Positions 41,513 to 47,149 of a stretch of DNA of 64,000 nt are shown here, one piece after another. The notes beneath the pieces were generated by a model. That model did not search any database, was not told the DNA's origin, and saw only the letters and a program-made list of their open reading frames with translations. The translations under genes were made by a program, and so were the position numbers. The DNA lies in the NCBI GenBank assembly GCA_963667365.1, contig OY763324.1, positions 534,433-598,432 on the forward strand, in the 5' to 3' direction. Positions within the stretch are counted from its first letter, which is position 1. Every line of letters begins with the position of its first letter. The DNA comes from Candidatus Poribacteria bacterium. GTDB taxonomy: Bacteria > Poribacteria > WGA-4E > WGA-3G.

Positions 41513-42364
41513 ATGAATCAACACGATTTCAACCTCACCGATTCGGAGATTAATTTCTTTAAGACATTCGGTTACCTCAGTTTTCCACAACTGATGGCAG
41601 ACCGAATTAATGCAATTCAGGATGCATTTGAAGCCGTGTGGGTAGAACGAGGCGGTGGTCATAACGGCAAGCCACACGAAGGCACTGCACGTTCCTGTAT
41701 TGTTCCTTTTATCGATCAGAGTGAGGAGTTATCATCGCTACTTGATGATCCGCGGATTCTTGCAATTGCGAAAACATTGCTCGGAGACGATTTTAACTAT
41801 ATGGGGAGTGATGGTAATTTTTACGTTGGTGATACAGGTTGGCATTCTGATGGTGGACATCGTTTAGAAGATCCGATGCACATCAAAATTGCATTTTATC
41901 TGGATCCACTCACACGGGATACAGGTGCGCTCCGAGTCATTCCCGGTAGCCATCTCTTCGGGGATAACTATGCTGATGGACTGAGCCAGCAAGTTGGAAA
42001 AAGCCAAGAGGTGTGGGAATTGCACGGAAAAGATGTGCCAGCGGTTGTCTTTGAAACAACTCCTGGTGATCTTGTGCTCTTTAACCATAACACAAAACAC
42101 GCTGCTTACGGAGGTGGTACGCGTAGACGTATGTTTACCATGAATCTCTGTCAACGATATCCAGATGAGAAAATCGAGGCATTGCAAGCCTATATTGCGG
42201 GTTCCGCAAGGTTCTGGATTGATCGAAAATATGGAGAGAAAATGGTAAGGACAGCGACTCCAGAGCGGAAGATTCACCTTGAACAGGTGATGGCGAACGA
42301 TGACCATCTTGCAGAGTTGTCACGTCAAGCACAGGAACGAATGAGTGAACCATCACGTGGATGA
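41513..42364 (+). CDS. PhyH family dioxygenase with canonical H-x-D...H triad
   Basis: WHSD, GALRVIPGSH, PGDLVLFNHNTKHA, RRMF. Confidence 0.88.
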   Translation: MNQHDFNLTDSEINFFKTFGYLSFPQLMADRINAIQDAFEAVWVERGGGHNGKPHEGTARSCIVPFIDQSEELSSLLDDPRILAIAKTLLGDDFNYMGSDGNFYVGDTGWHSDGGHRLEDPMHIKIAFYLDPLTRDTGALRVIPGSHLFGDNYADGLSQQVGKSQEVWELHGKDVPAVVFETTPGDLVLFNHNTKHAAYGGGTRRRMFTMNLCQRYPDEKIEALQAYIAGSARFWIDRKYGEKMVRTATPERKIHLEQVMANDDHLAELSRQAQERMSEPSRG

Positions 42365-43183
42365 TGTTTGCTGCCACGTTTGCTTTACATACGTGACCGC
42401 TTTTTCAAACCCTTGCTGTCCTTGGCGACTGGCTTCCTCTATGCTAAGCCAACCGTCGTAATTTGCTTGCCGCATTCGGGAAAAGACTTGGGGGATTGGA
42501 GACGCGCCTGTGCCGACGCGGACAGGTTCAAACGTTCCTGCTTCGTGCATGTCAAAGACATGAAGTACGACAACGCGATCAATCACTTTGTCCAGAAGGC
42601 TGAGTACATCTTCTTTTAGGACAAGAGGGTTTGCTGTGTCAAAGCATACTCCGAGTGGTGTATCCGATAATGCATCAAGGATTTCTAAGAAAATCTCTGA
42701 TGGTTGTGAAAAATCCCAATACTGCCACGGTGCACCTATGGTATGGTTCTCATAAGCGAGTGTGATACCATTTTTCTCGGCTACCTCAAGTGCCTGACGA
42801 AATCCGTCTATAACCCAACGTACCCCAATATCTCGTTTTGTTCCAGGATGATTTTGTCCCGCCGTCACCCGAACAAATTTTGCCCCCAATGCCTTCGCCA
42901 ATTCAATGTCCGATTTCAGGTTCGTTAGTTCTTGTTTACGTTGTGTTTCATCGGGATGTGTGAAGTCAGAATAACAAGCGAGCATACACGCTTCTATACC
43001 GCGTTTGGCAAGGATCGTACGTATTAAGTTCACCGTTTTTGTATTTCGATGTGGTAAAAATTTTATGCTAAAGTCTACTGCATCAAGTCCCAATTTTGCA
43101 CCAAATCGGATCCAATCGGCAACAGTGCTTTTTCCAGTAAAGATGTCATCGTATAGGGAAACAGGTAGGCAGCTTAGTTTCAT
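42353..43183 (-). CDS. Sugar phosphate isomerase/epimerase (TIM barrel)
   Basis: LAYENH, CFDTAN, LHVFD, SIEE; start moved to MKLSCLP. Confidence 0.85.
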   Translation of the reverse strand: MKLSCLPVSLYDDIFTGKSTVADWIRFGAKLGLDAVDFSIKFLPHRNTKTVNLIRTILAKRGIEACMLACYSDFTHPDETQRKQELTNLKSDIELAKALGAKFVRVTAGQNHPGTKRDIGVRWVIDGFRQALEVAEKNGITLAYENHTIGAPWQYWDFSQPSEIFLEILDALSDTPLGVCFDTANPLVLKEDVLSLLDKVIDRVVVLHVFDMHEAGTFEPVRVGTGASPIPQVFSRMRQANYDGWLSIEEASRQGQQGFEKAVTYVKQTWQQTSST

Positions 43184-43364
43184 GGTTATTTTCGTTGTGC
43201 TAAGGTAATTTGTAATGACGGTTATTATAATGAAGTTCGTTAGGATTTTCAAGTATTTTGTTAGTGAGTCAGATTTTGTTAGCAATCCTGTTAAAATTGA
43301 TTGAATCGGCTGGTTAATATATGTTATCATAACCTCATAAGATAATGATATACTGGAGAAAACA

Positions 43365-43658
43365 GTGGAACATCAGAATCAGGAACTTGCTGAAAAGTAT
43401 TTAAACAGTGGATTAGAAAACAGCAAAAAAGGAGAGGTAGAACTTGCTATTGAAGACTATACGAAAGCAATAGAACATAATCCCGATTTTGCTGAGGCAT
43501 ATTATTATCGTGGCGGGTCGTGGTTACGTCTTGAAGAATGGGAAAAAGCCAGATCAGATCTTGAGATTGCCAGAGAAATGAAAATGGATACCATCGTTGC
43601 CTCAGATGAGATACGAAAAAAATATGACCGAGCATGGAAAACCTTAGGAAACATATAA
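43365..43658 (+). CDS. Small TPR protein with antitoxin-like C-terminal helix
   Basis: AIEDYTKAIEHNPDFAEAYYYRG TPR; tail DEIRKKYDRAWKTLGN; overlaps the doc-like gene. Confidence 0.75.
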   Translation: MEHQNQELAEKYLNSGLENSKKGEVELAIEDYTKAIEHNPDFAEAYYYRGGSWLRLEEWEKARSDLEIAREMKMDTIVASDEIRKKYDRAWKTLGNI

Positions 43659-44029
43659 AATATCTGACGATTGAAGATATTCTGGTAGTTGCTGAGGACC
43701 ACGTCGGAAACTTCCAGGTGATTAAGGAAGAGCAGTTACATTATTTGATTGAAGCGGTAGGTGCGAAATTTGGTGATACTGAATTATTTCCGACTCTATT
43801 CCAAAAAGCTGCTGTATATGCACATCATATTGTTTCCGGACACATATTTTTTGATGGAAATAAACGCATCGGCATGCATAGTGCAATTTTATTTTTAGGT
43901 TTGAATGGTTGTAAATTTCAACCCAACATAGATGATTCAATTATTGAACTCGGTCTAAAAATCGCAGATGGTTCCATAACTGATATTGACATAATTGCAA
44001 ATCACATACAGCAATGGGTTTTACCGTAA
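43634..44029 (+). CDS. Doc (death-on-curing) family Fic-fold toxin
   Basis: HIFFDGNKR (Doc-type Lys), LFQKAA, KYLT N-terminus; start uncertain (ATG 43634 or ATA 43655). Confidence 0.88.
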   Translation: MENLRKHIKYLTIEDILVVAEDHVGNFQVIKEEQLHYLIEAVGAKFGDTELFPTLFQKAAVYAHHIVSGHIFFDGNKRIGMHSAILFLGLNGCKFQPNIDDSIIELGLKIADGSITDIDIIANHIQQWVLP

Positions 44030-44068: not shown

Positions 44069-44401
44069 ATGAATCCATCAGATAAACAGAAATACCTTGA
44101 AATGTGCCAACATCCCGCAATTCAAGCACTTAAGCCAAACACAGAAAATTCTAAAACTCTTTGGATACCAATCGCTGAACAACTACACACACTTTTAAAC
44201 CAGAAGTTACCCTACCCAGAACGTTCCAGTTTTCACCGTACTGCAAACGGATGGGAATACGAAACCTACTTTCAGGAGTGGGCAGCCGACTACGGCACCT
44301 ATATTGATACCCACCGTCAGTTTGTTGGACCTGAGGAAGAGGTTGTGCTAATGCAGGTGTTAATGGCGTTGCTCGGTATTGACGGACGATGGATGGTATG
44401 A
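44069..44401 (+). CDS. Hypothetical protein
   Basis: 110-aa ORF with ATG, same strand as its neighbours, fills the gap. Confidence 0.65.
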   Translation: MNPSDKQKYLEMCQHPAIQALKPNTENSKTLWIPIAEQLHTLLNQKLPYPERSSFHRTANGWEYETYFQEWAADYGTYIDTHRQFVGPEEEVVLMQVLMALLGIDGRWMV

Positions 44402-44426: not shown

Positions 44427-45137
44427 ATGACATTTGGTGTATTATTTACAACGATTCGAGAATACAAACAGGCAGGTATCACTAATCTTGATACTCTCAC
44501 TACTCTTCTCAACGATACTTTCGGAGATTGGTTAATATCTCAAGGGATAAGTCATCTTGAGGTGTTGGAGGAAAGCAGGTTGTGCTTGAATGTGACGGGA
44601 CAACTCAAAGAGCACAATCCTCTAAATGATATACAACTATTTTCACGATTTCTCGTGATTTCGCTTGACGAGGATATAGTAAATCCAGAGACAGTTGAGG
44701 AGGCACTAAAATTCTATTCTTCAGATGGGGACGGTGCTTATGTCTGGGTAATTCCTGATGGTTACATGGCAGGGTTAACTGCATCTGAACAGGAATGGGA
44801 GGAACATGGTGGTGGATACTTTTCACACGAATCTATCTGCATTTCTAATACCGCAGATATTGATACTATATGTCTCTTAGAGGTGCTTTACGAGGACACT
44901 GATATGGATAATGTTTCTTGCGAGTTTGATGTGCCTGCACATAGGTCGGTGCATTATCGGTTGGATAAACTAAAGGACGCGAATGGTGAACCACTGATTG
45001 CTAAAGATGCACCAGTCAGTTACAAAATCACAAGCCGTAATGCACGAATTGTTGTACAAGGTTCACGTATTTTAACAAGCGGAGAGGACAGCATGTTCGC
45101 CAGTTTTGGTACGGTGATGGCGTGGTGTCCACAATAA
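44427..45137 (+). CDS. Unknown N-terminal domain fused to an ASRT (Anabaena sensory rhodopsin transducer)-family domain
   Basis: From aa 107: WVIPDGY...SHESICISN...VPAHRSVHYRL...IVVQGSR matches ASRT motifs WAIAEGY, SHETVCILN, VPARRTKHVRF, IVVQHTR; AGGAG RBS. Confidence 0.8.
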   Translation: MTFGVLFTTIREYKQAGITNLDTLTTLLNDTFGDWLISQGISHLEVLEESRLCLNVTGQLKEHNPLNDIQLFSRFLVISLDEDIVNPETVEEALKFYSSDGDGAYVWVIPDGYMAGLTASEQEWEEHGGGYFSHESICISNTADIDTICLLEVLYEDTDMDNVSCEFDVPAHRSVHYRLDKLKDANGEPLIAKDAPVSYKITSRNARIVVQGSRILTSGEDSMFASFGTVMAWCPQ

Positions 45138-45138
45138 C

Positions 45139-46107
45139 TTAAAGACTTTTCCTGTAAGGTTCCAAATCAATCCCTGGGAATGCTTGTGCCATACGGTCTA
45201 ATGCTTGCGGTGTGTAGTAAGGATCACCAGTGGTAGGCCATCCTAACACATTTCTCACGGTAGGTGTTGTCTGTGTGATAAAATTCATATAGTGTGGACT
45301 TGACCGTGGTATGGGTCGTGTCGTGTTACACCAATCAGCATTGTCGGCACGGTGAAAATGATACCCCATCCAAACCCGTTGTTTGCTTCTGTTCGCAAAA
45401 GGTTGTGCTGCATGGACTATATAACTTGACCGATAGATAGCACTCCCTGCTTTCGCGATGAGAGGAACAGGTTTCGCCAATTCTTTAAATTCACGTAGGT
45501 CCGGAATACCAAGACCACCTGCGCTTCCTGGCTGCTTTTCCCATATTATATCCAGTTGGTCTTGTGAACCAGGACAGATGAGCATCGGTGCCCCGTCCAA
45601 ATCAACATCGTGCAGCATAATGCTGCATAGAATATATCCGTATCGTAGCCAATCGGGATGCGGTGGCAATGCGGAATTCGTCCCGTTGTCAATGTGATAC
45701 CCTTGCCACGGATGTTCACTATACCGCGAATCTGTCAATCCTTCTCTCAGAAAAATTTGCCCGTAACTAATACGAATTTCATCTGTGTCCAACAACTGTT
45801 TCGCAATTGCCGTATAGGTTTCATTCTCAATAAGTTTGTCCACAGGTGCTAATCCTGTTGGAAAGTGCGAGACCTTAGCAAAGGGACCCGCGAGTCGATT
45901 CATTAGATCATTCTTTTCGTAGGCACTTTTCAGTTCGTCCGGTTTTTCATCCCATTTAGCGCGATATTCTTTGTATGTTAATCCATCATAAGCATTTTGT
46001 TCAACCGCTTCCAACGCAGAAGAAACTGCTTCCTCCGAAAATACGTTAGGCACAATGATAATTCCGTCTCGTTTCCAGGTTGCAAGTTGGTTATTTGTCA
46101 GTTTCAT
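45139..46107 (-). CDS. PhyH family dioxygenase with canonical H-x-D...H triad
   Basis: WKRDGIIIVPNV, YHIDN, PMLICPGS, YIVHAA, QR; start moved to MKLT. Confidence 0.85.
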   Translation of the reverse strand: MKLTNNQLATWKRDGIIIVPNVFSEEAVSSALEAVEQNAYDGLTYKEYRAKWDEKPDELKSAYEKNDLMNRLAGPFAKVSHFPTGLAPVDKLIENETYTAIAKQLLDTDEIRISYGQIFLREGLTDSRYSEHPWQGYHIDNGTNSALPPHPDWLRYGYILCSIMLHDVDLDGAPMLICPGSQDQLDIIWEKQPGSAGGLGIPDLREFKELAKPVPLIAKAGSAIYRSSYIVHAAQPFANRSKQRVWMGYHFHRADNADWCNTTRPIPRSSPHYMNFITQTTPTVRNVLGWPTTGDPYYTPQALDRMAQAFPGIDLEPYRKSL

Positions 46108-46111
46108 CTCT

Positions 46112-47149
46112 TCACCTCTTTTGCTGAGAGAACTTTTCCCATTTGTCCTCTTCAACGTTTTCAGTTGTGTCCTGCTGAATTTTCTCCCACCATTCACGAT
46201 TTCCAACGTACCACTGAATCGTTTGTCGCATACCGTTTCCAAAAGGTATTATTGGTTTCCATCCAAGTTCACGGTGAATCTTTCCTGAATCTAAGAGATA
46301 CCTGCAATCATGTCCAGGTCTGTCAGGAACATAAGTCTTTAGGTTTTGAGGTTTTCCAAGCACCTCCAAGATAAAATCGCTTATCTCTTCAATGCTTTTC
46401 TCAACACCACTCCCAATATTATAGGTTTCTCCTATTTTCCCGTTGTGAATAACCGATTCAATTGCGCGGCAGTGATCATCAACATGCAACCATTCTCTGC
46501 GGTTGTGGCTACTTCGGTAGAGTGTCAAAGGTAGATCCTGTAAGGCGTTCGTTGTAAAAAGAGGAATCAGTTTCTCAGGATGCTGATAGGGACCGTAATT
46601 ATTGGAACAGTTGGAAATCGTAATCGGTAATCCGTAACTATGGAAATATGTGTTTACAAGATGGTCAGCGGATGCTTTTGATGCATTATATGGGGTCTGG
46701 GGTCGGTAGGGTGCGGTTTCTGTGAAAGCATGGGGTGAATCTAATGGTAGTTCGCCATATACTTCGCACGTAGAAATATGGTGGAACCGAGGGACTTCGT
46801 AATGTCGTGCAACATCTAATAAAACCTGCGTCCCAATCACATTGGTTTCAAAAAATGCACGCGGATTCAAAATAGCACGACTATTGTGTGATTCTGCTGC
46901 AAAATTGACAATTATCTCAGGTTGATGTGTTTCTATTATTTCTGAAACACATGATACATCAAGAATATCTCCGTGGGCAAATACATACCGGTCAGAATAA
47001 GCCAAAACGATATCTGCCAAGTTGGTAAGATTTCCTGCGTACGTCAGCCTGTCGAGGTTGATTATAACATCATCAAGATTTTCCTTAAGCCAGTATCTGA
47101 TAAAGTTGGTGCCGATGAATCCTGCACCTCCAGTGACCAATAATTTCAT
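46112..47149 (-). CDS. rfbB: dTDP-glucose 4,6-dehydratase
   Basis: VTGGAGFIG, NFAAESH, STCEVYG, YNASK, SNNYGPYQ.PEKLIP, DRPGHD.RY. Confidence 0.92.
   Translation of the reverse strand: MKLLVTGGAGFIGTNFIRYWLKENLDDVIINLDRLTYAGNLTNLADIVLAYSDRYVFAHGDILDVSCVSEIIETHQPEIIVNFAAESHNSRAILNPRAFFETNVIGTQVLLDVARHYEVPRFHHISTCEVYGELPLDSPHAFTETAPYRPQTPYNASKASADHLVNTYFHSYGLPITISNCSNNYGPYQHPEKLIPLFTTNALQDLPLTLYRSSHNRREWLHVDDHCRAIESVIHNGKIGETYNIGSGVEKSIEEISDFILEVLGKPQNLKTYVPDRPGHDCRYLLDSGKIHRELGWKPIIPFGNGMRQTIQWYVGNREWWEKIQQDTTENVEEDKWEKFSQQKR

Follow-up and report, generated by a model that had tools for sequence, protein, structure and literature searches.

A TPR protein with a Phd-C-like tail as the probable antitoxin of a Doc toxin in Candidatus Poribacteria

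We analyzed a 64,000-nucleotide (nt) stretch of DNA from Candidatus Poribacteria bacterium (assembly GCA_963667365.1, contig OY763324.1, positions 534,433 to 598,432), hereafter the window, and within it two overlapping genes that encode a small tetratricopeptide repeat (TPR) protein and a toxin of the Doc family. Poribacteria are sponge symbionts. The pair is probably a chromosomal type II toxin-antitoxin module of the Phd-C/Doc kind, in which the antitoxin carries a TPR accessory domain in place of a DNA-binding domain. The comparative evidence for the TPR protein as an antitoxin that acts through its C-terminal tail is strong; it consists of the likeness of this tail to the ends of classical Doc antitoxins, the occurrence of the tail on proteins without TPRs, and its linkage to Doc.

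The gene pair, its conservation and its decay

The two genes and their parts are located in the window as follows.

43365 to 43658, + strand: candidate antitoxin gene, 97 amino acids (aa), GTG start, two TPR repeats and a C-terminal helix
43392 to 43595, + strand: TPR1 (residues 10-43) and TPR2 (residues 44-77), stretches matched by Pfam, with predicted helices 2-21, 25-38, 43-55 and 59-71
43590 to 43655, + strand: Phd-C-like tail, residues 76-97 (TIVASDEIRKKYDRAWKTLGNI), predicted helix 75-93
43634 to 43658, + strand: 25-nt overlap of the two open reading frames (ORFs); the last eight codons of the TPR gene (WKTLGNI and the stop) are the first codons of doc (MENLRKHI) in another frame
43634 to 44029, + strand: Doc toxin gene, 131 aa, ATG start, family TIGR01550
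43841 to 43867, + strand: Doc catalytic motif HIFFDGNKR, H70 to R78, with the NKR of the Doc type and not the NGR of Fic

The TPR protein matches the Pfam families TPR_1 (41.4 bits, E 1e-10), TPR_2 (37.8 bits) and TPR_11, and has two repeats. Its AlphaFold2 (AF2) model (predicted local distance difference test, pLDDT, 93.6) has five helices, the first four of which superpose on a designed consensus TPR at 0.5 Å over 64 columns. No DNA-binding domain of the Phd/YefM, AbrB/MazE or RHH (ribbon-helix-helix) type was found in it, TPR families being its only matches in Pfam and NCBIfam, and it has no Pfam match to the Panacea (DUF4065) domain. The inhibitory motif of Fic proteins, (S/T)xxxE(G/N), is absent from the sequences of both the TPR protein and Doc, which are encoded by two separate ORFs in different frames. 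The TPR protein thus stands outside the canonical Doc-antitoxin families, though it would act like their C-terminal half. Its homologues form 81 clusters, mostly of ~97 aa, and those with a named source come from Candidatus Poribacteria; the source names call them 'tetratricopeptide repeat protein', 'hypothetical protein' or give a pilus-assembly label, and never antitoxin.

The Doc protein matches the NCBIfam model TIGR01550 DOC_P1 ('type II toxin-antitoxin system death-on-curing family toxin') with 56.2 bits against a cut-off of 38.65, residues 11-126 of 131 being covered, and the Pfam family Fic with 39.1 bits against a cut-off of 24. Its homologues form 465 clusters, and the motif residues F72, D74, G75, N76, K77 and R78 are invariant among 36 homologs. 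Sequence matches in the PDB are 9VZC_A and 3K33_A. The AF2 model of Doc (pLDDT 86.9) has six helices, and its top five Foldseek matches are P1 Doc chains in complexes with Phd (3DD7, 3K33, 3KH2; template modelling score 0.72-0.78, root-mean-square deviation 2.7-2.9 Å).

The initial annotation had described two TPR repeats, a tail, and an overlapping Doc gene with an intact HxFxDGNKR motif, and had noted that TPRs stand where a DNA-binding domain is usual. Both ORFs as read, their hidden Markov model (HMM) matches and the predicted TPR fold agree exactly with that description. The pair is beyond chance, given HMM E-values of 1e-10 (TPR) and 3.7e-15 (Doc) and its recurrence in dozens of genomes.

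For this recurrence we scanned one genome per species, 185,579 species in total, with the tail motif Y[DE][RQ]AWK[TI]LG. The scan identified 66 loci, essentially all of them in Poribacteria. An ORF with the Doc motif lies directly downstream of the tail in 55 of the 66 loci, and in 51 it is at least 120 aa long; the pairing, for which the initial annotation had suggested a wider search, is thus not unique to this assembly. The overlap between the two genes in the 51 intact pairs is 25 nt (28 pairs), 4 nt (11), 34 nt (6), 28 nt (3), 31 nt (2) or 53 nt (1). When the search was made from the Doc side, every full-length Doc of the clade had a tail-bearing gene upstream (30/30). Two TPR-Doc copies occur ~6 kb apart on one contig (L092 and L095, JAAXGN010000015.1), one of them after the PhyH and AP_endonuc_2 genes with a Doc cut to 79 aa, and the other, with an intact Doc, before the 110-aa ORF and the ASRT-domain gene (these neighbors are described below). 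It looks as if ~6 kb had been inserted between two cassette copies or the locus had been duplicated.

Both genes of the pair are under purifying selection where they are intact. The median dN/dS of 74 ortholog pairs with both genes intact, the overlap being excluded, is ~0.19 for the TPR gene and ~0.13 for Doc. Decay of the pair is asymmetric. Doc is truncated, eroded or absent in 15 of the 66 tail loci: it is truncated in four, and the other 11 have no Doc motif, with eroded remnants in several of them and elsewhere only the first 16-19 codons, which overlap the tail, or nothing. Frameshifts in Doc were observed in three loci (L001, L003, L005), and in a fourth (L007) Doc is cleanly absent next to an intact TPR gene. 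A strain ~99% identical to that of the window (run X7) has a 1-nt deletion at 43858, in the GGAAAT of HIFFDG/NKR, that frameshifts Doc (contig level, word depth 85), while its TPR protein differs only by the conservative changes E2G and S52A. Since Doc never occurs without its partner and the partner often occurs without Doc, the relation between the two fits that of a toxin and its antidote.

The C-terminal tail and its carriers

The tail of the TPR protein is well conserved. The positions conserved in at least 90% of sequences are D81, Y87, R89, A90, W91, L94, G95 and N96, Y87 being invariant. The initial annotation had likened it to the ends of Doc antitoxins, a resemblance that profile comparison bears out. 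The profile of the Poribacteria tails aligned in hhalign with 16 classical Doc-antitoxin tails of the AbrB, Phd and RHH types at 95.2% (P 2.6e-8) over 23 columns, end to end, whereas the reversed profile used as a control gave P 0.02, and the comparison with 60 internal TPR junctions of the same proteins gave 1.3% (P 0.039).

The six hot spots of Salmonella Phd are F56, I59, M60, H63, L67 and the 'gatekeeper' L70 (PMC9207808). In a C-terminal alignment they correspond to tail positions 80, 83, 84, 87, 91 and 94. The family has L/S, I, L, Y, W and L there, and the window protein has S, I, R, Y, W and L; five of the six are hydrophobic in the family consensus and four of six in the window protein. 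Similar endings are present in Doc antitoxins of other types. The Staphylococcus AbrB-type Doc antitoxin ends in ...QYDKAFKELVNR (also given as ...EEISNQYDKAFKELVNR); on viral contigs, all 17 of 17 IMG/VR loci have antitoxins that end in ...AFEELAK or alike (...ILKKFKPAFEELAK, ...INAKHKKAFKKLAE, ...CNKKYARAMKELAK). Of the two systems with solved structures, P1 Phd ends in ...STNKELVNR (longer form ...LFDTLDSTNKELVNR, sequence verified), and E. faecalis Phd (9VZC_B) in ...HNELYKELVT (longer form ...KQKHNELYKELVT), its residues 65-79 being those that mediate toxin binding (PMC13034048). A narrow HMM of the Poribacteria tail, run against 386 ORFs of outgroup Doc loci, ranked a Spirochaete antitoxin first (E 0.008) and the Staphylococcus one third (E 0.48), a result that is suggestive but weak.

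A search of the PDB with the tail profile retrieved chance 9-mers only (the J-domain helix DQAWKILGN and DarR) and not Phd, the query being too short. The J-domain match pairs tail residues 88-96 (DRAWKTLGN) with helix III (PDB 1WJZ/2L6L; E 0.014 with a short profile) and is probably a chance likeness. The same stretch fits the TPR signature W4-L7-G8-N9, a resemblance to TPRs that might have made it easier for the tail to recombine onto genes of this type.

The proteins that end in this tail range from 61 to 1113 aa and from 2 to ~30 TPRs; 47 partners have at most 140 aa, and 11 exceed 400 aa, with up to ~30 TPRs. Two loci (L140, L149) have the tail on a TPR-free protein of 69 aa whose gene overlaps that of Doc, and in L019 it lies ~75 residues past the last TPR. 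The closest Doc outside the phylum (46% identity) comes from a Spirochaete metagenome-assembled genome (L190), where the 50-aa non-TPR partner ends in ILNKYKRAWEDLAR; an Anaerolineae Doc partner ends in INDHRDAWDILAEM. Because the same tail occurs on non-TPR carriers and, in L019, far beyond the array, it travels with Doc rather than with TPRs and is a portable module. The fusion with TPRs looks like an innovation within Poribacteria.

Several observations weigh against the antitoxin reading. The window protein has polar residues, S80 and R84, at two of the six hot-spot equivalents. The tail is a confident helix in the AF2 monomer (pLDDT 83-89), where it continues the TPR stack as the fifth helix directly after TPR2 and is not disordered as in Phd; as modelled, it might in part be a TPR cap. 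AWKTLGN at the protein end also fits the W4-L7-G8 signature of TPR helix A, and a loose tail regular expression that recognized 107 Doc-upstream ends also matched ~20 internal TPR junctions, hence it is unspecific. The frequent loss of Doc shows that this gene is dispensable. The loci are found among metabolic genes in stable synteny, with no obvious mobile elements, and a search for transcripts in public runs returned, for the runs that bear the locus, DNA contigs continuous on both strands.

Taken to its end, the doubt about the tail becomes the proposal that it is a mere structural capping helix of the TPR domain and that its adjacency to Doc is meaningless, which we consider highly improbable. 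The position of the fifth helix, the TPR-like signature and the loose matches at TPR junctions speak for a cap, but the identical tail is found on proteins without TPRs and well past the array in L019, the linkage to Doc is complete (30/30), and the addition of the tail helix worsens the superposition on capped consensus TPRs from 0.5 Å to 4-6 Å. Moreover, the worry that the tail is a TPR remnant is answered by the 1.3% obtained for its profile against TPR junctions. In the window protein W91 lies ~20 residues past helix B2, versus ~7 expected of a next repeat.

The TPR protein could instead be a targeting or regulatory subunit that docks Doc via the tail and presents a substrate, by analogy with metazoan FICD/HYPE, whose TPRs lie N-terminal to the Fic domain and recruit the substrate. 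Or it could act as a chaperone with which Doc is exported to the sponge host. In line with this proposal, the TPR-containing FICD/HYPE proteins come directly after P1 Doc among the structures that match the Doc model, the TPR protein is weakly similar to TPR chaperones of the SycD/LcrH type (E 3e-5, far below the cut-off), and the eukaryotic-like proteins that the literature lists for sponge symbionts include TPR proteins. However, the Doc motif has NKR (Doc type) and not NGR (Fic type), the tail aligns with the neutralising tails of antitoxins, and neither a secretion signal nor genes for secretion were seen in the vicinity. Furthermore, it is Doc that decays first while the partner is kept, as fits an inhibitor, since an adaptor is useless without its enzyme. 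An adaptor role is therefore very unlikely.

The three tail-protein architectures with an N-terminal TIR domain are those of L019 (TIR_2, 46.8 bits; 72.5 bits to ThsB-like PADLOC models), L112 (TIR_2, 96.7 bits) and L011, whose N-terminus is the same by sequence. These large TIR-TPR proteins (701-1052 aa) that end in the tail are encoded in L019/L142 (493-3651), L112 (1373-4072) and L011/L105 (1174-3279), and as antitoxins they would themselves bear a potential NADase effector domain. L112 adjoins an Eco57I-type restriction-modification methylase. L011 is the same locus with Doc lost, and has the same MPI-cupin and acyltransferase genes downstream. Another module, REWEKAKxDLxxAxxMGxNIVxAFxNDYxSVxDFEQxHGVxLPEDI, is internal to L019 (residues ~930-1000) and is also present in L011 and L131. 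It follows a 'last TPR' closely similar to the pre-tail TPR of the short proteins, gave no above-threshold match in Pfam or NCBIfam, and looks like a second kind of TPR-array terminator.

The TIR-TPR forms bear on a refinement of the antitoxin reading, in which the module is a sensor-coupled defence. A phage or foreign protein bound by the TPR or TIR-TPR part, or degradation of the antitoxin, would make the tail release Doc and stop translation, as in abortive infection. Such a Poribacteria-specific immune or conflict module would have a tail that toggles between its own TPR stack and Doc, with Doc freed when the TPR groove binds a phage or foreign protein or, in the long forms, by TIR activation, and gain and loss of repeats would retune its specificity. 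This scenario is in line with arrays of 2 to ~30 TPRs on an otherwise conserved cassette, as for a diversifying recognition surface, with the ThsB-like TIR domains and the methylase next to L112, with matches of the window Doc to PDC-S23 and PDC-M59B, two candidate defence families of PADLOC, and with the sensory role that Ernits et al. propose for accessory antitoxin domains (PMC10440598). Yet the window copy has two TPRs only and is highly conserved (omega 0.19), not diversifying; its neighbors are metabolic genes in stable synteny and form no defence island; no close relatives of the window Doc clade were found on viral contigs; and Poribacteria encode very many TPR proteins, so the variation in array length may reflect neutral recombination. 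Both the sensor function and the immune module built on it are thus possible but rather unlikely.

Expression, proposed mechanism and genomic setting

Upstream of the pair, the following candidate signals were identified.

43301 to 43330, + strand: predicted sigma-70-type promoter (consensus scan), with -35 TTGAAT at 43301-43306, an 18-nt spacer and an extended -10 TG-n-TATCAT, hexamer at 43325-43330
43325 to 43350, no strand assigned: imperfect inverted repeat TATCATAACCT / AGATAATGATA, 82% complementary, lying across the -10 and the first part of the leader; a possible operator or 5' hairpin
43355 to 43358, + strand: Shine-Dalgarno-like GGAG, 6 nt 5' of the GTG, as read from the sequence

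Both promoter hexamers are kept in 10 syntenic orthologous loci, and the block GGAG(G/A)A 5' of the start is kept in orthologs and paralogs. In paralogous cassettes at other sites, including one of the TIR type, the promoter reads TTGACA-17-TGTTATCAT; their leader is similar, and they keep the GGAG block and the same N-terminus, MQELNQE. A promoter with the 35-nt leader TACCCTCAAGTAAnCGCATTGTGGAGGAGAAAA, ~75 nt before the start codons, is common to cassettes such as L098, L114, L131, L136 and L146 despite their differing sites and TPR lengths. Because the paralogous cassettes share these parts, the unit that spread consists of promoter, leader, N-terminus, variable TPR array, last TPR, tail and Doc. 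The promoter at 43301-43330 is probably functional and would serve both genes, and the 25-nt overlap suggests translational coupling. No conserved palindromic operator was found, the inverted repeat at 43325-43350 being specific to the window and not kept in orthologs; paralogs have at the equivalent place a weak dyad, ATTAC-N6-GTAAT, that may serve as operator or form a 5' hairpin. The stretch from Doc to the next gene showed no terminator-like site.

We suggest the following mechanism for the antitoxin reading. By analogy with P1 Doc, the Doc protein would act as a Fic-fold kinase that phosphorylates EF-Tu and stops translation; the identification of Doc as an EF-Tu kinase is due to Castro-Roa et al. 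2013, as cited in PMC10440598. The last ~22 residues of the antitoxin would form an amphipathic helix of the Phd-C type that lies in the groove of Doc and keeps it inactive. The TPR array, two repeats in the window, would at minimum serve as a folded support that keeps the tail stable, in the way that SUMO or Panacea does for Phd-C, and may also oligomerise or bind another protein. The conserved near-consensus promoter predicted for both genes, together with probable translational coupling via the overlap, suggests constitutive, coupled expression of the pair. Classical autorepression is unlikely and conditional cooperativity is not expected, because the TPR protein has no DNA-binding domain.

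The genes that surround the pair in the window are listed below.

41513 to 42364 and 45139 to 46242: PhyH-family (phytanoyl-CoA dioxygenase-like) genes that bracket the locus
42353 to 43183, - strand: AP_endonuc_2 gene, xylose-isomerase-like TIM barrel
44069 to 44401, + strand: conserved 110-aa ORF with no family match, directly downstream of Doc
44427 to 45137, + strand: ASRT-domain gene, 236 aa (Anabaena sensory rhodopsin transducer; 56.5 bits in Pfam)

About 23 of the 66 tail loci share this synteny, PhyH, AP_endonuc_2 (opposite strand), TPR, Doc, the 110-aa ORF and the ASRT-domain gene. A second conserved site has the order sulfatase, sulfatase, TPR, Doc and a D-serine-dehydratase-like gene. 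The products of the flanking genes are up to 94% identical to those of Poribacteria metagenome-assembled genomes. The 110-aa ORF and the ASRT gene were considered as parts of the module and rejected, as they are not linked to the pair outside the group of syntenic orthologs (23/66); they still adjoin the TPR gene in L007, where Doc is deleted. The G+C content of the TPR-Doc pair is 0.36-0.38 versus 0.43-0.45 in the flanking genes, which is compatible with an acquired cassette, though the locus is syntenic across many species.

Significance and relation to known systems

The TPR-Doc pair brings a new accessory domain into the combinatorial network of type II antitoxins, namely an array of protein-binding repeats that varies greatly in length and at times comes with TIR. 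It thereby supports the idea that nearly any carrier can accept Phd-C as a short linear element for neutralisation. Since TPRs bind peptides and proteins, the family is a good natural test of trigger-sensing accessory domains, and its interest would be higher if the TPRs are indeed sensors. At 97 aa and two repeats, the window version has a size that allows direct testing in E. coli. The pair would also give a function to some unexplained TPR proteins of uncultured sponge symbionts, which are now annotated as 'tetratricopeptide repeat protein' only.

The Phd-Doc systems of P1, Salmonella and E. faecalis (PDB 9VZC) resemble the pair in their two-gene operon with the antitoxin first, the HxFxD(A/G)NKR motif, the same predicted Doc fold (template modelling score 0.73-0.78 to 3DD7/3K33), and an amphipathic end helix of ~22 residues in the antitoxin, with the same hydrophobic register and an end of the form ...[FWY]-K-x-L-x-N. 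They differ from it in that a Phd/YefM or AbrB domain stands in place of the TPR array; the pair is therefore expected to show neither operator binding nor conditional cooperativity. In addition, the overlap is of a few nt there and of 25 nt here, and for the TPR protein the tail is a predicted helix even when no toxin is present.

The Doc antitoxins of the AbrB and RHH types (Staphylococcus simulans plasmid, Nostoc pCC7120epsilon, IMG/VR loci L207-L223) share with the TPR protein the C-terminal pattern I-L-x-x-[YFH]-x-[RK]-A-[FWM]-x-x-L-[AGV], located just before or overlapping the doc start. Unlike the TPR protein, they have DNA-binding N-terminal domains and are 65-116 aa long, and many are found on mobile elements. 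The metazoan FICD/HYPE, a TPR-Fic AMPylase and the second-best structural neighbor of the Doc model, likewise combines two TPR motifs with a Fic-fold enzyme. It is, however, a single chain with the motif HxFxxGNGRxxR and an intramolecular inhibitory helix with Glu, and it AMPylates BiP; its mechanism is unrelated in sequence to that of the tail.

The closest precedent is the PanAT system of Corynebacterium doosanense, where Doc is neutralised by PanA::Phd-C; Phd-C fails by itself but neutralises as a fusion with SUMO or Panacea (Ernits et al. 2023, PMC10440598). There, too, a portable Phd-C is carried by an accessory domain that does not bind DNA; that domain is dispensable for neutralisation and has been proposed to be sensory. 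The family described here, which is known from its sequences and essentially confined to Poribacteria, has as accessory domain a TPR array in place of Panacea (DUF4065); the array varies greatly in length and in some members is of the TIR-TPR form. We found no description of a TPR-Doc or TPR-antitoxin pairing in the literature searched. The initial annotation had seen here a possible new toxin-antitoxin pairing; the antitoxin role of the tail is well supported by comparison, while the novelty is tempered by PanA::Phd-C and SUMO::Phd-C. The principle of a portable Phd-C on a carrier that does not bind DNA is known (PMC10440598), and the TPR array as that carrier is new.

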